64,000 nucleotides of DNA from a virus: the IMG/VR virus record IMGVR_UViG_3300031221_000001, positions 1 through 64,000 of that record; one strand, 5' to 3'. The first letter of the stretch is position 1, and each line of letters begins with the position of its first letter. The notes beneath the pieces are model-generated. The model was not told the origin of the DNA. It worked only from the letters and a program-made list of their open reading frames with translations, and ran no database searches. Of the stretch, positions 14,125-26,949 are shown piece by piece. The position numbers and the translations under genes were made by a program.

Positions 14125-15291
14125 ATGGCAGACAGATACACCGACATAGAGAAGCAAGTAGAACAGATAGTCGACAACCAAGACGATAAGTCAATTACGG
14201 TACCTGATACGGTCAAAGATCAGGTAGCTTATAAGAGGTACGTTAAGCTAAAAGATGCAAAGTCTTTACAGAGAGATAACCGCATGATTACTACTAGTGA
14301 CGTCAATCTAACGATAGATCCAATAGGGAACCTAAGTAGGACAGAAAAGCTAATAGTACACTTGCCAAGCGATGAGCAAGATACCATACTAAAAAGGTGC
14401 AAAGCAATAAAGGTGATCTATCTAAAAGTAGGTGCCTTAAAGCTCAAAGCGTATGGTATGAAGCGTCCCAGGTACCATCACACACTACAGATGGGACTTC
14501 TTGATGAACGCAAAAGCGAGTTGATAGAATACTATGGCAGGATGCTAACGACGAAGGAGGTGCATAAGATCATCACTGTCGAATGGGGTTATGAGGTGGC
14601 TATTGAAACGTTGAGAAAGTTCAAGAAAACATACATTGACAAGATTAAGGATCGACAGGAACACTTTCAAAGGGACTTTAATGACATTAGGTTAGGTCAC
14701 AAGAAGGGACGTTTGGAAGAGCTTGTGTGGATGTACAATAGTAGAAAGCAAAAGTATGAGGATACAGAAACCAAGACTGACTATCAGTTAATGCTTCAAA
14801 CGTTAAGAGCAATACGAGATGAGGTGGAAGACAAGTCCCTACGCATTGATCACAACATTAATGCAAAGCTTGAAATAACGGTTAACAATCACATTCAAAC
14901 CGAGATAATGAAGGGGTTAACGATAAACGACATAATCATTGCAAGGGTTGCTGCGAGAATGAATATTAATCCACGATTCCTCATAACAAGACTTCACAAT
15001 AGTGCGTATGCGAAACATAGCGGATTCATTCGTCCAGATAGTGACCTAGATAAACAAGACGTCACTTACCCTTCTTCAATAGTATACAATTGGGACAAGA
15101 TTGAAAAGCAACACAAGAAGTATGGCGATGTTGGCCTGGACGAGGCTGAATGGGAAGAGGTGACTGAGCCAGAAAAGCAAAGAGCAGGAGACTTAAAAGA
15201 TGTACTACTCGCTAAGATATTGGACAAAAAAAGTGATCTTTCGACAGCAAAACAAAGAATCGTTAAAAATAGCGATCCTAAGAAAGAATAG
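14125..15291 (+). CDS. hypothetical protein, possibly terminase small subunit-like (DUF2280-like segment)
   Basis: HTH-like segment followed by RQEHFQRDFNDIRLGHKKGRLEEL; functional call is weak. Confidence 0.4.
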   Translation: MADRYTDIEKQVEQIVDNQDDKSITVPDTVKDQVAYKRYVKLKDAKSLQRDNRMITTSDVNLTIDPIGNLSRTEKLIVHLPSDEQDTILKRCKAIKVIYLKVGALKLKAYGMKRPRYHHTLQMGLLDERKSELIEYYGRMLTTKEVHKIITVEWGYEVAIETLRKFKKTYIDKIKDRQEHFQRDFNDIRLGHKKGRLEELVWMYNSRKQKYEDTETKTDYQLMLQTLRAIRDEVEDKSLRIDHNINAKLEITVNNHIQTEIMKGLTINDIIIARVAARMNINPRFLITRLHNSAYAKHSGFIRPDSDLDKQDVTYPSSIVYNWDKIEKQHKKYGDVGLDEAEWEEVTEPEKQRAGDLKDVLLAKILDKKSDLSTAKQRIVKNSDPKKE

Positions 15292-15933: not shown

Positions 15934-16572
15934 ATGATCACAACAGACGAACAGGCGTGGGAAACGTGCTCTTTGAAAGACAAGTGGGTATTCAACAAGT
16001 TAGAAGTTGCAATGAGAACGGGATTGAAGTGCGGTTTGAGAGAAATTCCTGTATTTATGAAAGGACAGTACATTATTCGACCAGTATACAACCTAAACGG
16101 ACTGAGTCGAGGAACGAAAGACAGATACCTCACTCCAAAAACTACAGAATTCAACGTTCCGTTAGGACATTTTTGGAGTGAAAAGCTACAAGGAGAGCAC
16201 TTATCGGTAGATTATGTGTTCGGAACGCCTGTATTGACAGTGGTTGGAAAGAAGTTTAAGAACAGCCTATCACTATTCGATTCATGGACAAAGATATCTA
16301 GCGAGAAAGCGCCACAATTGCCAGACTTCTTGTACGATTTGACAACAAGACATTCAGTGATTAATGTCGAATTCATAAACAACATACCGATAGAAGTGCA
16401 TTTAAGGCCTAACCCAGACTTCACCAATCACAACTACAACAAATTGATTACAGTATTCAGTCCATTAGAAGCTGATCTAAGCAATCCTGATTTTATCGAA
16501 GATAAAGCGACTGTACATGGACAAGATGGCCAGAAATTCACTAGATACGGATTTATTGGAAGTGATGAGTAG
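15934..16572 (+). CDS. conserved phage protein, possible ATP-grasp-like fold
   Basis: WVFNKL, YIIRPVYNL.G, FWSEKLQGEHLSVDY, INVEFI..IPIEVHLRPNPDF. Confidence 0.5.
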   Translation: MITTDEQAWETCSLKDKWVFNKLEVAMRTGLKCGLREIPVFMKGQYIIRPVYNLNGLSRGTKDRYLTPKTTEFNVPLGHFWSEKLQGEHLSVDYVFGTPVLTVVGKKFKNSLSLFDSWTKISSEKAPQLPDFLYDLTTRHSVINVEFINNIPIEVHLRPNPDFTNHNYNKLITVFSPLEADLSNPDFIEDKATVHGQDGQKFTRYGFIGSDE

Positions 16573-16615
16573 GTTATAGAGAGCAACCTAAACCTTTTCT
16601 GTGTATCTTTGCAGC

Positions 16616-17059
16616 ATGAATCTGATAACAAAGGACATAGAAAAGGCAATTGTTCAGTTCGAACATAGAGCTCCAATAAGATCTTTACGAACTAGTGCGA
16701 TATATCCAAACCACGAATGCGATGCTCTAGTAATTACCAATAGCAATTATGCAGTTGAGTATGAAATAAAGATTTCTAGAGGAGACTTCTTCGCAGACTT
16801 CAAGAAGAAGAAGCATAAATCGATGAGGCGGAATGATGGAGGCAAGATTAGTCGTTTCTACTACGTAATGCCAAAGGACATGGTCTCACTAGACGATATT
16901 CCTCAATATGCTGGACTAATTTACGTTGACAAATCACTGGAGTGCTCAATAATCAAACCAGCACCAAGACTTAGGTGCGAAAAGGTTAGTGATAAGGACA
17001 TAAACCGAGTGTACAGATCAATCATGTTTAGGTGGTTAAAGGATCAGTCAGAAAAATAA
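16616..17059 (+). CDS. PD-(D/E)XK nuclease, MmcB-like
   Basis: ECDALVI...EYEIKISRGDFFADFKK, FYYVMP, YAGLI. Confidence 0.75.
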   Translation: MNLITKDIEKAIVQFEHRAPIRSLRTSAIYPNHECDALVITNSNYAVEYEIKISRGDFFADFKKKKHKSMRRNDGGKISRFYYVMPKDMVSLDDIPQYAGLIYVDKSLECSIIKPAPRLRCEKVSDKDINRVYRSIMFRWLKDQSEK

Positions 17060-17071
17060 TTTCAGTAACGG

Positions 17072-17102
17072 TTGCTTTAAAGATATCTTTAGAGTATCTT
17101 TG
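17072..17102 (+). promoter_or_regulatory. promoter TTG-N20-TATCTTTG upstream of the cassette array
   Basis: Perfect -7 TAnnTTTG; leader TGTCATAAGACA is shared with the 20760 promoter. Confidence 0.8.
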
Positions 17103-17120
17103 TTATGTCATAAGACAATT

Positions 17121-17306
17121 ATGAAAACAATACTATTTTTACAAGGTCGTGGCCCAGACAAATGGACGCCAGCGTGTGACAATCCGAATCCTCCATTTTG
17201 GTGTGATGAACAAGTAGAACCAGGAGCGCCAATTGATCAATATATCTTATGCCTTCTTATTATTGCAGTTCTCCTTGGAATTTATATTATATGGAAAGAT
17301 AAATAA
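17121..17306 (+). CDS. small protein with PID-CTERM-like sorting signal
   Basis: Pro-rich stretch, then APID, a TM helix and KDK. Confidence 0.55.
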   Translation: MKTILFLQGRGPDKWTPACDNPNPPFWCDEQVEPGAPIDQYILCLLIIAVLLGIYIIWKDK

Positions 17307-17309
17307 GTG

Positions 17310-17522
17310 ATGAAGCTAAAAGAATTTAAACAACAAATTGAACAACATTTTATACTGAGAAATTTGACAAGCACTTATGCGAATGCACGGGCACAATTGC
17401 ATTAAATAAAGGCGATAGATTTACAGACAAAAAAAGGTAATGTATATGAAGTTGTTTGGAACTTATTTAATGTAACAGATATGATAATGGTTTATCACGG
17501 TAAATTAATAGTGGGAGCTTAA
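17310..17522 (+). pseudogene. interrupted ORF ending at the first attC-like site
   Basis: 71 codons with an internal TAA at 17403-17405. Confidence 0.45.
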
Positions 17523-17660
17523 TGCACCCTAACGGTTTGTATAAGGTACGTTGCGACCTTGAATTAAGCGACAAAACTAATCAATAAATAGAAATTATGA
17601 GTAAAGAAATAAGTAACCAAAAATATAAAAAGCAATGGACTTTATACGGTATTCTGCAAC
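17523..17660 (+). repeat. attC-like site 1
   Basis: CCCTAAC, arm GTATAAGGTACGTTGC (17539-54) / GCAATGGACTTTATAC (17632-47), degenerate core ATTCTGCAAC. Confidence 0.65.
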
Positions 17661-17815
17661 GTTATTTTTTTATTAGTTGGCATAAATATTGGAAAGGAAT
17701 TTACATTCACTTACCTAGAGTAACGCACCGATTTTACCTTAATAAGCGATGGATATTTAAACACGATAAATATTCAAATGTAGGTTCAAGAATATCACAA
17801 AAATTAGGTGTGTAA
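17597..17815 (+). CDS. cassette ORF A (starts inside site 1)
   Basis: 72 aa; stop abuts site 2. Confidence 0.55.
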   Translation: MSKEISNQKYKKQWTLYGILQRYFFISWHKYWKGIYIHLPRVTHRFYLNKRWIFKHDKYSNVGSRISQKLGV

Positions 17816-17816
17816 T

Positions 17817-17952
17817 GTTGCATAACGTGTTGTATATGGTTTGTAGGCATAGACAAGAGCTAACTTTAGATTAAGCACCTACTTAAAGAATAGAAAATAA
17901 ATATTGAATTATTAACTAAATTGCCTATAAATTATATACTTTGTTAGGCAAC
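17817..17952 (+). repeat. attC-like site 2
   Basis: GTTGCATAAC, arm GTATATGGTTTGTAGGCA (17832-49) / TGCCTATAAATTATATAC (17922-39), core GTTAGGCAAC. Confidence 0.8.
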
Positions 17953-17967
17953 GTAAATTAGATAAAA

Positions 17968-18189
17968 ATGAGTAAAGATAAAATTAACATTACAGCAGAC
18001 CAATTAGAAACCATAGAACATTACCAGCGAATGTTTAGACTTAATTCTGAAACAATACAAGGCTTGTGTAGTGAAGAGCAAGACGATGTTGTCTATGGTT
18101 TTGAATTAGGAAAGATGCACTCACATTTAGAAGAATGCTTTATGGGAATGATGAAGTTAACTGATGAGATTAGGTCTAATAACAGTTAG
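17968..18189 (+). CDS. cassette ORF B
   Basis: 73 aa between sites 2 and 3. Confidence 0.65.
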   Translation: MSKDKINITADQLETIEHYQRMFRLNSETIQGLCSEEQDDVVYGFELGKMHSHLEECFMGMMKLTDEIRSNNS

Positions 18190-18196
18190 GTATTAT

Positions 18197-18338
18197 GTTG
18201 CTTAACGGACGAGTATATGGCAAGTTGCTTATTAATAAATAAAACAAAAACTTTGAATATGATTACAAAATATATAAATACTTGGAGACTTAAAAAATGG
18301 CAAAGTAATTTGCTATATACATTGTTAGGGTTAGTTTA
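18197..18338 (+). repeat. attC-like site 3
   Basis: GTTGCTTAAC, arm GTATATGGCAAGTTGCTT (18213-30) / AAGTAATTTGCTATATAC (18303-20), core GTTAGGG. Confidence 0.8.
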
Positions 18339-18498
18339 CTCTACAAAGATTGTAAAAGGTGACAAAATTAGATGTTATGGAATAGGCTACCCTCATTGGA
18401 AAGGTGAAGAGTTTGAATGTACACTTGACTTTAAAGATGGAACAATAGGTGTAAGAAATGCAGTAAGGGTATCCGAGAAAGATTTTAGGAAACTATAA
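18259..18498 (+). CDS. cassette ORF C (starts inside site 3)
   Basis: Probable start MITKY (alternative 18217); stop overlaps the left end of site 4. Confidence 0.55.
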   Translation: MITKYINTWRLKKWQSNLLYTLLGLVYSTKIVKGDKIRCYGIGYPHWKGEEFECTLDFKDGTIGVRNAVRVSEKDFRKL

Positions 18499-18644
18499 AT
18501 TAACCCTAACGGGATGCAAATAAATAAAGTACGACTATGAAAACACTAAATGACATTTTAACAAAACTCAAATTCGACAAGGAATCAAGCCCAATTGAAG
18601 CACATAATCAAGTATTGGATTTATTTGCTGTTAGTGGCTGGCTC
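18496..18644 (+). repeat. attC-like site 4
   Basis: TAACCCTAAC, arm GCAAATAAAT (18516-25) / ATTTATTTGC (18619-28), core GTTAGTGG. Confidence 0.7.
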
Positions 18645-18779
18645 GAATTTGAAGGTAACGAATCAATCTTTAATGAATATGCAAAACGCAATTGTCTTTG
18701 TAAATTCGATGATGGAACTGAATGCAGGTATGAGGATGAACACCCAATAGCATTACTCACTCACTTTAGATGTAAGTAG
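18537..18779 (+). CDS. cassette ORF D (starts inside site 4)
   Basis: 80 aa; stop abuts the half site GAGCTTGCTACTAAC. Confidence 0.6.
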   Translation: MKTLNDILTKLKFDKESSPIEAHNQVLDLFAVSGWLEFEGNESIFNEYAKRNCLCKFDDGTECRYEDEHPIALLTHFRCK

Positions 18780-18971
18780 AGCTTGCTACTAACAAAACCA
18801 TGAATGAAATTGATAAATTACTAAAAAGCTCAAGCAAGATCAAAATATCCTATTGGAGAACTTCAGGGAAGAGGTTTTAAGAATCCAATCAGGACAGCAA
18901 ACAATCGACGTAAGTAACGTGGAGAAAGAAGGATTTGTAATTACTGCATCAGCGGGATCATTTGCATTCGT

Positions 18972-19187
18972 ATGATAAGAATTTACAAGAAGACTCAAGT
19001 CAGTCACACACATAGCGCTTATTTAATGGTCAACGATAAGAATGGTCAAGCAATCGAATCACTATGTACTGAAGATGAGATCGAAAAGTTGAAGAATATT
19101 CTACCATGCACTGAAGTTAGTGAGAGACCAAACAACTTTACCAAACTACCAAAATCAGAAGAAGAGGAATTTTTCATAAACGCATAA
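18972..19187 (+). CDS. hypothetical protein
   Basis: ORF. Confidence 0.5.
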   Translation: MIRIYKKTQVSHTHSAYLMVNDKNGQAIESLCTEDEIEKLKNILPCTEVSERPNNFTKLPKSEEEEFFINA

Positions 19188-19189
19188 AG

Positions 19190-19432
19190 ATGGATTATTA
19201 ATATTGGAAAGCACTGGGAATTTTAGGTCACGCAAACTCAGGAACTGCTCAAGTAGCGAATCAAATGGCTGAAAGAGGAATAAACATCGTATCAGAAGAG
19301 TCCACCACACTCCGTATAGCGAACTGTGCATATTTCAATCAGTCATATATAATAGATCCTCAAATCAAACAAAGTAGACGTGAGAGGAGGGCTGAACAGA
19401 GACGATTAAAAAGTTGCATAAAAGATAATTAG
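19190..19432 (+). pseudogene. ORF with a premature TAA at codon 4
   Basis: ATG GAT TAT TAA, then an open frame (ILGHANSG...SRRERRAEQR) to the TAG at 19430-32. Confidence 0.35.
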
Positions 19433-19444
19433 TAGCTATCTTTA
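19414..19444 (+). promoter_or_regulatory. promoter TTG-N20-TATCTTTA
   Basis: Motif copy with perfect 7-9-7 palindrome. Confidence 0.75.
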
Positions 19445-19468
19445 AGAAATAATTTAAAGACTGTACAA

Positions 19469-19702
19469 ATGGGAAACATGATCACAGACAGAGAATTAAT
19501 CTGTCAAAAGCACTTATCTATCAGCACAGGAAACAATGCTGATAGATTTTCACTAGAAGAGTTCTGTGAATTTCACTCACTGAGATCCAAAGATGCTGTG
19601 GGGTTGATTCAATCATTGCAAGATGTTTCGATAATGAGAGACATGTGTGAAGGAGATTTCTTATCTTTCGACTTTGATAAACTAATTGGTCAAATAAAAT
19701 AA
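19469..19702 (+). CDS. hypothetical protein
   Basis: ORF after the promoter. Confidence 0.55.
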   Translation: MGNMITDRELICQKHLSISTGNNADRFSLEEFCEFHSLRSKDAVGLIQSLQDVSIMRDMCEGDFLSFDFDKLIGQIK

Positions 19703-19704
19703 TT

Positions 19705-19971
19705 ATGGAAATCACACAAGGACAAGATTTTGGACAAATATTACAGACAGTGATAGTAACGTTCGGCGTAATGACCGTTCTAGCAATCACACTACTAAGT
19801 GGAATATATGTAATTTGGAGGTATATATGGGATAGTAGAGGGAAGCATAACTCTATCGAAGACATAAATCTAGCTCAGGAAACTTTATGTACATGCGAGA
19901 AAAGTCTGAAATATCCAATGGATAAGGACGGGATTTCGGATTGCAATACATGCTTAAACGGAACAATTTAA
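19705..19971 (+). CDS. small membrane protein with Cys-rich tail
   Basis: TM helix, CTC...CNTC. Confidence 0.55.
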   Translation: MEITQGQDFGQILQTVIVTFGVMTVLAITLLSGIYVIWRYIWDSRGKHNSIEDINLAQETLCTCEKSLKYPMDKDGISDCNTCLNGTI

Positions 19972-19981
19972 CAATAGAGTT

Positions 19982-20356
19982 ATGTCACATTTAATATCAT
20001 GGCTACTAGTGATTTCGATAATGATTTCGATAATAATAGCAACAGACACGTTTCGAGTTCGAAGAAAACGTAAACAGTATAGAAAGCAAATTGCAGAAGA
20101 CAATTTAAGATTTAACCAATGCGTTGATTCAATTAATGATCAAGACGTCGAGTTGGCGATTAAATTGTACAATCAACTAATCAGTCGAAATGGTAATAGA
20201 GCATTCCTTAACGGAGTGATGATTGGAATGCAACTACCAAAAACTAAAGCAAAACTTCATCGTCACAAATATCAATGCTGTGATCCTGAAGCAACACTTA
20301 ATCAATTATTCAAAGTAGGAACAAGTAACACACAAGACAATGAAGACAGTAAATAG
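19982..20356 (+). CDS. membrane-anchored hypothetical protein
   Basis: N-terminal TM followed by a basic patch. Confidence 0.55.
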   Translation: MSHLISWLLVISIMISIIIATDTFRVRRKRKQYRKQIAEDNLRFNQCVDSINDQDVELAIKLYNQLISRNGNRAFLNGVMIGMQLPKTKAKLHRHKYQCCDPEATLNQLFKVGTSNTQDNEDSK

Positions 20357-20540
20357 AGTAGCGACAGCGATGATTTTATTATTAGGACTAATGATAATTT
20401 GCGGATGTAGTTCAGTCAAAGAACCATTGATAGTTCTAACTGGCCGAGAGGTCGTAGCAATGATAGTATTTGGAGTAATCGTAGCAGTTGCAGTGATATA
20501 TACCTTTGCAGCGTGGCTAACAAAAGTTTTTAAAAGATGA
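20340..20540 (+). CDS. small putative lipoprotein / membrane protein
   Basis: Signal with ICGC lipobox-like motif plus a TM helix. Confidence 0.5.
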   Translation: MKTVNRVATAMILLLGLMIICGCSSVKEPLIVLTGREVVAMIVFGVIVAVAVIYTFAAWLTKVFKR

Positions 20541-20759: not shown

Positions 20760-20790
20760 TTGCTTAAAAGATATAGATAAGGTATCTTTG
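20760..20790 (+). promoter_or_regulatory. promoter TTG-N20-TATCTTTG
   Basis: Motif copy with perfect palindrome. Confidence 0.8.
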
Positions 20791-20826
20791 CTGTGTCATA
20801 AGACAGTAACCATAAAAGACCGTAAA

Positions 20827-26104: not shown

Positions 26105-26457
26105 GGGGGCGACTGGTTTTGACTGGTACGTAGTAAATAATGTTCAGCCGTTGTAGTCAACGTAAAAACGTGGTGAATTTCTTTAAATGGAAACACAGAT
26201 ATGACAGCAGGAGAGACTGCACAAGTAGAAGCTAATATGAACGTAGTACACAATCTCGTGAATAACAGTAACGAAATTGCCGAATACAAATTAGCAGCAT
26301 AAAAGTACTCTGAGTGTAACTAGCTCAGATGGTGGATTGTTGGAAGACTCGTCTTTCGACCCTATTGTGACGACAATTCAAACACGTAGCAAGCTGTGCT
26401 AAAAACATTATTTATAAAATGCTTGGGACGGGAGTTCGAATCTCCCCGCCTCCACAA
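26105..26457 (+). ncRNA. ssrA: tmRNA
   Basis: 5' GGGGGCGACTGGTTTTGAC; 3' GGACGGGAGTTCGAATCTCCCCGCCTCCA; G3.U acceptor pair; internal frame ending YKLAA-stop. Confidence 0.93.
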
Positions 26458-26805: not shown

Positions 26806-26878
26806 TGTCCTGTGGTGTAATTGGTAACTCTTCTGGTTTTGGTCCAGAAGAGTCTAGGTTCGAGCCCTAGTAGGATAA
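26806..26878 (+). tRNA. tRNA-Gln(TTG)
   Basis: TGTCCTG/TAGGATA acceptor, TCTGG-TTTTGGT-CCAGA anticodon arm, CTAGG-TTCGAGC-CCTAG T arm; one D-stem mismatch; CCA not encoded. Confidence 0.9.
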
Positions 26879-26949
26879 CAAATAACAAATCATAGTAGAT
26901 GGGTGGTAATTTTTTAGGATATTTACATCCATATCAAATTATTATTATT

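Follow-up and report, generated by a model that had tools for sequence, protein, structure and literature searches.

The window analysed here is the whole stretch of 64,000 nt that makes up positions 1 to 64,000 of IMGVR_UViG_3300031221_000001, a 95-kb genome (92% complete) which IMG/VR lists as a virus, and in which a portal protein, RNR, ThyX and a UvrD-type helicase identify a phage; all of its large open reading frames (ORFs) except one are on the + strand. Between 17519 and 18793 the + strand contains four elements of one layout, each consisting of TAAC, 5-6 nt, an arm of 16-18 nt, an AT-rich interior of ~90 nt, the return arm, 3 nt and GTTA, and the tract is occupied by four + strand ORFs of 72-80 aa. 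We consider it likely that these are four arrayed cassettes of an integron-like system of gene cassettes, common to marine and saline Flavobacteriaceae and their phages. The elements belong to a family of sites with a covarying stem, the two ends of a cassette are as a rule complementary to each other, and cassettes shared by unrelated phages break exactly at TAACG. A recombinase family is linked to such arrays in bacteria and in some phages, and is absent from the phage of the window.

An earlier note on this stretch, made from the sequence alone, had described the four elements, including a degenerate ATTC in the first of them; they are real, with the coordinate given there for the TAAC being one base off. 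Throughout the genome there are 110 pairs of TAAC and GTTA spaced 100-170 nt apart, and the six with the highest arm complementarity all lie inside the tract. Eight of the nine arm mismatches in sites 1-3 combine a G in the left arm with a T in the right arm, which allows pairing on the + strand only. The tract is more AT-rich than its flanks (GC 0.27-0.31 versus 0.35-0.42) and each unit has one small ORF with its stop near the TAAC, both as noted earlier; the stops are located 11-17 nt ahead of the end of the following TAAC. Three of the four ORFs begin within the apparent loop, so that the right arm and the GTTA are coding. None of the four cassette ORFs matched a family from Pfam or PHROGs. 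No further copies of the four sites were found in the phage genome with blastn-short, and R1, our covariance model of the site family, matched only the four window sites in this genome. A genome scan for cassette-like inverted ends outside the array gave background only (shuffles give ~9 pairs at >=12/15), and an Rfam 15 search of 16000-20500 at E<=10 returned two chance-level matches only.

Table 1. Sites, cassettes and edges of the array, in positions of the window; bit scores are those of the R1 covariance model.
Feature	Position	Strand	Description
Orphan 3′ cassette arm TTAATGCACCCTAAC	17519-17533	+	Ends in the site 1 TAAC; left edge of the array
Site 1, attC-like	17530-17654	+	94.7 bits; TAAC at 17530-17533
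Cassette 1, 293 nt	17533-17825	+	Site 1 and ORF 17597-17815 (72 aa); arms 17651-17664 and 17813-17826
Site 2, attC-like	17823-17946	+	90.7 bits
Cassette 2, 380 nt	17826-18205	+	Site 2 and ORF 17968-18189 (73 aa); arms 17943-17957 and 18192-18206
Site 3, attC-like	18203-18327	+	83.6 bits
Cassette 3, 304 nt	18206-18509	+	Site 3 and ORF 18259-18498 (79 aa); arms 18324-18338 and 18496-18510
Site 4, attC-like	18507-18633	+	50 bits; divergent L boxes GCAAATAAAT / ATTTATTTGC
Cassette 4, 283 nt	18510-18792	+	Site 4 and ORF 18537-18779 (80 aa); arms 18630-18644 and 18779-18793
Closing TAAC	18790-18793	+	Right edge of the array; no site after it

The orphan arm at the left edge is built like a cassette 3′ arm, its TAATG motif containing the stop of a 13-aa ORF remnant, and its partner GTTAGGGTGCGTTAA is absent upstream. 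Site 1, with ATTC (17651-17654) as a degenerate 3′ R box in place of GTTA, is 75% identical by blastn to an unannotated intergenic stretch of Tenacibaculum phage PTm1, where the GTTA is kept. The ORF of cassette 1 starts in the loop, and its N-terminus (MSKEI..KKQWTLYG) was also found in four viral loci (L003, L013, L061 and L080) with differing upstream flanks. Site 2 has an 18-bp stem in which all three mismatches are G.T on the + strand. In contigs of three salt-lake runs, 66 nt of its loop (17857-17924) are skipped at a depth of 50-223, and this shorter loop probably belongs to a more abundant relative in those three samples. A blastn comparison with isolated phages showed that 18240-18510, covering most of cassette 3, is 87% identical to gp30 of Cellulophaga phage phi18:1, with the match stopping exactly at TAAC; in phi18:1 a short, perfect TAAC-stem-loop-stem-GTTA hairpin stands right after it. 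The arms of site 4 are 17 nt long and 82% complementary, and the right edge of the array is the end at which recombinase-bearing phages place the recombinase gene.

Site family, cassette ends and breakpoints

A strict pattern built from the shared boxes (TAACG N4-5 GTATAWGG N75-105 TATAC NNN GTTA) was present in 88 IMG/VR loci and at least 120 bacterial loci, the latter almost all from marine Flavobacteriaceae such as Polaribacter, Winogradskyella, Lacinutrix, Tenacibaculum and Olleya. In an alignment of 82 sites, the inner helix of 18 bp is 91.5% paired and contains numerous compensatory pairs (UA37/CG33; AU39/GC19/UA12; CG44/GC24) and two almost invariant G.U pairs, and its covariation score was reached by none of 500 shuffles. 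The YAAC/GTTR helix (R box) is paired in 99.4% of cells among 81 distinct sites, with the ATTC of window site 1 as a deviation. Inside it lie the L boxes GTATAWGG and CYWTATAC, separated from the R box by an unpaired, asymmetric spacer (5-6 nt versus 3 nt). The stem covaries, one strand has two fixed G.T pairs, and the loop varies in length from 6 to ~100 nt. The family thus has the R-box AAC/GTT inverted repeats, inner L boxes, unpaired spacer and structure-conserved variable terminus of attC sites, with a geometry that differs in detail from class 1 attC sites.

Scanning phage and host genomes with a covariance model, as the earlier note had proposed, yielded 256 R1 sites in 90 viral loci (the 88 IMG/VR loci plus the phi18:1 and PTm1 regions) and 351 in 80 of the bacterial loci. 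Viral sites form same-strand arrays with a spacing of ~250-600 nt, among which L077 has 11 sites, L047 has 10 and L070 up to 15. Two tandem sites of ~50 nt, each with a 6-nt loop, were present at L071 1154-1262, and between them is a 24-nt 'empty cassette' that has nothing but its 5′ and 3′ arms (GTTG...CAAC). Sixteen viral loci (e.g. L040 8345-9325) encode a member of an N6_N4 DNA methyltransferase family near or inside the arrays, and 14 the large terminase subunit, with viral arrays often located just upstream of packaging genes, as in phi18:1.

To assess the cassette ends, we compared the 15 nt starting at GTTR after a site with the 15 nt ending in YAAC before the next site. Among 105 viral cassettes, Watson-Crick pairing at positions 4-10 was 93, 87, 93, 84, 86, 84 and 60%, followed by a recurrent G.T at position 11 (66%), by 74, 78, 70 and 51% at positions 12-15, and by background levels from position 16. 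In the controls, positions 4-9 were paired at 24-46% between the flanks on either side of a site and at 25-43% in random pairs. The same was seen in 103 bacterial cassettes, with 93-98% pairing at positions 4-9 versus 29-60%, and sites ending in GTTG were followed by a site starting with CAAC in 10/14 cases. As the end sequences vary between cassettes while complementarity is held within each, it is the pairing that is conserved, and not a binding sequence for a transposase. Own-end complementarity is a real recombination signature and a rule of the whole site family. In the window it is found in cassettes 2, 3 and 4 (13/15, 15/15 and 13/15, with the G.T at position 11 counted as a match); cassette 1, for which it had also been claimed, reaches 11/14, which is no better than with its neighbour's arm.

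Cassette boundaries could be placed at base resolution using shared units. The 11-kb viral loci L076 and L057 cannot otherwise be aligned, and have exactly two units in common (99.0% identity over 610 nt and 100% over 855 nt), each extending from the T of one TAACG through the TAACG of the next junction, with unrelated flanks on both sides. The same TAACG boundaries were found for units shared by L076 and L050 (83.8%) and by L023 and L085 (92.2%), and near-identical sites keep their downstream flank and not their upstream flank. Shared units cut at TAACG at both ends, together with the conserved downstream flank, point to a mobile unit made up of a site and the ORF downstream of it, and to a crossover within TAAC(G) on the + strand, which corresponds to the G/TT of the attC R′ box on the complementary strand. 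Joining of cassettes at G/TT, as proposed earlier, would therefore apply to the complementary strand, with the GTTA of the + strand not being the cut point, and the gain-or-loss breakpoints that had been expected exactly at GTT are indeed exact in unrelated phage contigs and fall in the TAACG of the + strand. Measured from TAAC to TAAC, the units of 292, 381 and 306 bp given in the earlier note become 293, 380 and 304 nt, and the fourth, which had been taken for truncated, is whole with 283 nt. The idea of a gene-capture and shuffling array in a phage survives in the form of an integrase-less integron-like array, with single cassettes 99-100% identical in unrelated contigs, and with the cut point and unit bounds revised.

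Viral and bacterial array loci gave no blastn high-scoring segment pair at 1e-10 and had no cassette in common in what is a small sample, so that sites of the two pools are linked by the covariance model only. An all-against-all comparison of the bacterial loci gave one uninformative common stretch. R1 matched at least 145 sites in the chromosome of Polaribacter sp. R77954 (NZ_CP138992.1), the majority of which make up a single same-strand array of ~135 kb (1,898,458-2,035,813), while a Seonamhaeicola chromosome has a 37-kb array and an Olleya chromosome has two arrays. The viral and bacterial arrays are mirror images of each other: the cassette ORF is on the strand of the site model in 117/123 viral cases, and on the opposite strand in 95/103 bacterial cases. 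Viral cassettes thus have the order site then ORF, and bacterial cassettes ORF then site, as in integrons, with a median ORF of 87 aa and 178 aa, respectively. The strand with the fixed G.T pairs is therefore the equivalent of the attC bottom strand in bacteria, and the coding strand in phages. In viral cassettes, 48/106 ORFs start inside the site, and the stops are positioned in the 3′ arm, where 28 use the TAA of TAAC and ~37 use a TAA located 11-13 nt upstream.

A search for a co-occurring tyrosine recombinase, also suggested in the earlier note, was successful, with a gene for such an enzyme at one array end in all three complete chromosomes (Polaribacter, Seonamhaeicola and Olleya) and beside the arrays of four phage contigs. 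The Polaribacter R77954 array begins 1.2 kb from the gene for a 371-aa Xer/IntI-like recombinase (L215 1368-2483), which has an extra N-terminus of ~95 aa. The array-linked enzyme scores just below the cut-offs of the XerA and integron integrase models (192 versus 265 bits for TIGR02249) and aligns over its full length with archaeal XerA. Its alignment with VchIntIA/IntI4 (PDB 2A3V) is in two pieces, with 24 residues against 67 of IntI4, and the segment matching IntI4 residues 180-247 is missing, which shows that the IntI-specific insertion is absent. In the viral set, 9/50 array-bearing records had a PF00589 match, and five of these nine recombinases are short (261-278 aa) and 34-53% identical to the array-linked Polaribacter enzyme, an example of such a short phage recombinase being encoded at L221 1471-2271. 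Four of the five have R1 sites beside them on the same strand, with the gene at the R1-downstream end of the array; beside the fifth (L220) no R1 sites were found. One recombinase family thus goes with this site family in bacteria and in phages. The suggestion that a recombinase is encoded elsewhere in the window phage did not hold, as the 95-kb genome gave no match to PF00589 (tyrosine recombinase), PF01797 (Y1 transposase) or PF00239 (serine recombinase), and no homologue of the array-linked recombinase by tblastn (best E-value 0.12). With no such gene in the phage, the source of the enzyme is likely to be the host or a co-infecting phage.

Proposed recombination model and competing explanations

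We propose that each site functions as a folded-strand recombination site, made up of an R box, an asymmetric spacer, an L box with a fixed G.T, a covarying stem and a variable loop, in which a short Xer/IntI-like tyrosine recombinase would exchange strands inside TAAC(G) of the + strand. The folding strand would be this + strand, equivalent to the attC bottom strand and coding in phages. The mobile unit would start at the C of a TAAC and end with the AA of the following TAAC, comprising the site, the GTTR with the 5′ arm, a small ORF and the 3′ arm; in the circular unit both arms would pair and lengthen the R-box stem, which may explain why each cassette has its own complementary 15-nt ends. 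Cassettes adapted to phages would carry the site turned round and upstream of the gene, often supplying its start codon and N-terminus, and the array may allow the phage to gain, lose and reorder small accessory genes. We lean slightly towards seeing these arrays as an IntI-independent counterpart of integrons, in which an enzyme of the Xer type without the insertion acts on hairpins and maintains chromosomal arrays of up to 135 kb in Flavobacteriaceae, and in which a separate, phage-adapted pool has reversed, upstream sites.

Several observations weigh against this model, or against its operation in the window. The window phage lacks a recombinase. Neither an excised circle nor a deletion joint at a cassette boundary was seen in the salt-lake data, which cover 23 sequencing runs containing this stretch, none of them listed as RNA, as assembled contigs only, which break at the sites; contigs of four of these runs were inspected, where they branch at sites with other neighbours, and this bears on excision neither way. 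Folding of the window sites as single strands is weak (-5.2 to -9.9 kcal/mol, z-scores of +0.7 to -1.2), and their loops of ~90 nt are mostly unpaired and half coding. Site 1 is without GTTA and site 4 scores only 50 bits, and the array may be decaying in part rather than active. Finally, in the version of cassette 3 found in phi18:1 the left half of the site is missing, and this copy is placed inside a 58-bp direct duplication, which implies that other, ordinary recombination routes also move these genes. In phi18:1 (L001), copies of the last 58 nt of a VRR-NUC gene at 2440-2498 and 2893-2950 surround the gp30 cassette and the short hairpin, with the second copy closing a 32-aa ORF; the duplication looks like the scar of an insertion via non-site-specific recombination.

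An inert fossil, with cassettes that were acquired a single time from a relative bearing the recombinase, are now only decaying and are no longer shuffled in this lineage, is a possible explanation of the window array, albeit an unlikely one. The ATTC of site 1, the divergence of site 4, two to three arm mismatches in cassettes 1, 2 and 4, the missing recombinase and a frameshifted remnant gene at the right edge would all be in keeping with decay. However, sites 2 and 3 score 84-91 bits, the arms of cassette 3 are perfect, metagenome contigs from the four inspected runs branch at the sites, and since 41/50 array-bearing viral records are also without a recombinase, its absence represents the usual state. 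The hairpins could alternatively function as RNA structures in a polycistronic phage transcript, in processing, stability or translation control, with the genes being shuffled by homologous recombination between the repeats, similar to the promoter-early stem-loops (PeSLs) which provide a precedent (PMC2839356, PMC4122927). This would agree with wobble pairs that fit the sense strand only, with ORF starts inside the loop in 48/106 cases and with a phage lacking the recombinase, yet we regard it as improbable: in bacteria the same strand and its fixed G.T pairs are antisense to 95/103 ORFs, so a role in mRNA cannot explain the conservation, while the breakpoints are exactly in TAACG at both ends rather than scattered over the 125-nt repeat, and a dedicated recombinase family adjoins the arrays. 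The loops are also not enriched in the Bacteroidota -7 promoter motif (TAnnTTTG in 1/107 versus 2.0 expected).

The near-perfect 15-nt inverted ends on nearly every cassette, as well as the arms-only cassette in L071, are reminiscent of units resembling miniature inverted-repeat transposable elements (MITEs) with 15-bp terminal inverted repeats, which a transposase inserts between existing hairpins. The end sequences differ per cassette yet stay self-complementary, and the shared units take in the whole upstream site and end at TAACG rather than at the inverted repeats. The genome has no Y1/HUH transposase and no serine or tyrosine recombinase (DDE transposases were not searched), and we hold an origin of this kind to be very improbable.

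Comparison with known systems

The closest published kind of element is the cluster of attC sites lacking an integrase (CALIN) in virulent phages, which include Polaribacter phage P12002L (2023, PMC9892861). Shared with the window are an integrase-less row of hairpin-type sites with small cassettes in lytic phages, among them a phage of a Flavobacteriaceae host, and in both settings DNA methyltransferases are frequent as cargo or neighbours. The published clusters were called by canonical attC models and recombined by IntI1, whereas the ORFs of the window family are on the equivalent of the attC bottom strand and often start in the site, and the linked enzyme is no classical IntI. With four sites in 1.1 kb the window tract corresponds to a CALIN (two or more attC sites with no integrase near), provided that its sites count as attC-type. 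The published methyltransferase CALIN of P12002L does not belong to the window site family; the sole R1 match in this phage is elsewhere, a single site at 14488-14639 (50.7 bits) between two hypothetical genes.

Sedentary chromosomal integrons consist of IntI, attI and attC-bounded cassettes (Cury et al. 2016, PMC4889954; VchIntIA structure 2A3V). They have in common with the arrays described here the R-box AAC/GTT, the L boxes, the unpaired spacer, the variable loop, strand-biased folding, a crossover at G/TT, a cassette start complementary to the inverse core of the same cassette, and arrays of >100 cassettes beside a tyrosine recombinase. They differ in that the array-linked recombinase of the window family is without the IntI-specific insertion, that own-end complementarity extends over 15 nt here versus 6-7, that the spacer has 5-6 nt on one side against 3 nt on the other, and that the phage cargo is inverted relative to the site. 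An adjacent integrase with the IntI-specific insertion, as in a complete integron, was found neither in the window genome nor in the host chromosomes. The order of an integron cassette, with the ORF reading toward the attC, is that of the bacterial arrays (95/103) and not that of the viral arrays.

The PeSLs of T4-type phages are located between accessory ORFs (Arbiol et al. 2010, PMC2839356; Comeau et al. 2014, PMC4122927), and are likewise conserved intergenic stem-loop modules with small ORFs in plastic regions of lytic phages, for which shuffling via circles has been proposed. They are promoter-terminator composites that move by homologous recombination, in contrast to the exact breakpoints and linked site-specific recombinase of the window family. 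The attP of the CTX phage is a folded single strand which serves as a site for XerCD, a host-supplied Xer-type tyrosine recombinase. Such Xer-exploiting elements integrate whole genomes at dif, whereas in the window system multiple small cassettes are arrayed in the phage genome. Integrons in Bacteroidota have been reported in general terms (PMC8618304), and the literature searched held no description of the Flavobacteriaceae arrays, the short recombinase or the inverted phage cassettes.

The means by which lytic phages acquire and rearrange the numerous small accessory genes of their plastic regions have long been an open question. Here, single genes pass between unrelated phages with base-exact boundaries, via a site family that hosts use massively, and a concrete and testable mechanism can be formulated, for which the sites, the strand, the cut point and a candidate enzyme family are defined. 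An integron-like gene-shuffling system seems to be common to phages and hosts, and the window phage seems to use it without an enzyme of its own. If true, integron-type gene capture would reach into Bacteroidota and their viruses, through an enzyme without the feature thought to define integron integrases, and lytic phages could trade accessory genes singly, using the enzyme of the host, of a helper phage or their own. A further prediction is that genes have a route between the phage and host cassette pools, DNA methyltransferases and other anti-defence cargo included.

Flanks of the array

Upstream of the array, a 22-nt stretch (TATCTTTGTTATGTCATAAGAC, 17095-17116) recurs at 20783-20804 with 2 mismatches, where 0 chance matches are expected. 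Both copies contain a Bacteroidota-type -7 box (TAtcTTTG) and a common leader, and the promoter near 17072, for which the earlier note had considered a role like that of Pc, therefore looks like an ordinary, reused phage promoter with its 5′ leader.

Directly to the right of the array is a 26-aa ORF (18801-18881). The surrounding 107 nt (18796-18901) are 95% identical to the start of a 131-aa DnaA-C-like ORF on the minus strand of L219 (6782-7174), a viral contig unrelated to the window phage. The window copy has one A fewer than L219 and diverges past 18901, and it looks like a remnant of the DnaA-C-like gene with a 1-nt frameshift. In the salt-lake metagenomes, the depth of 18796-18901 is up to ~1000x that of the phage, and about one-third of it carries the A-containing variant, as in L219, behind 18822. 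We considered this segment as an attI-like anchor or as the N-terminus of a recombinase, and rejected both, as it represents the N-terminus of the DnaA-C-like gene and is not preceded by a full site in L219. Further downstream, the phage encodes a tmRNA (26105-26455; tag predicted by ARAGORN as AEYKLAA, then stop) and a tRNA-Gln (26806-26879).

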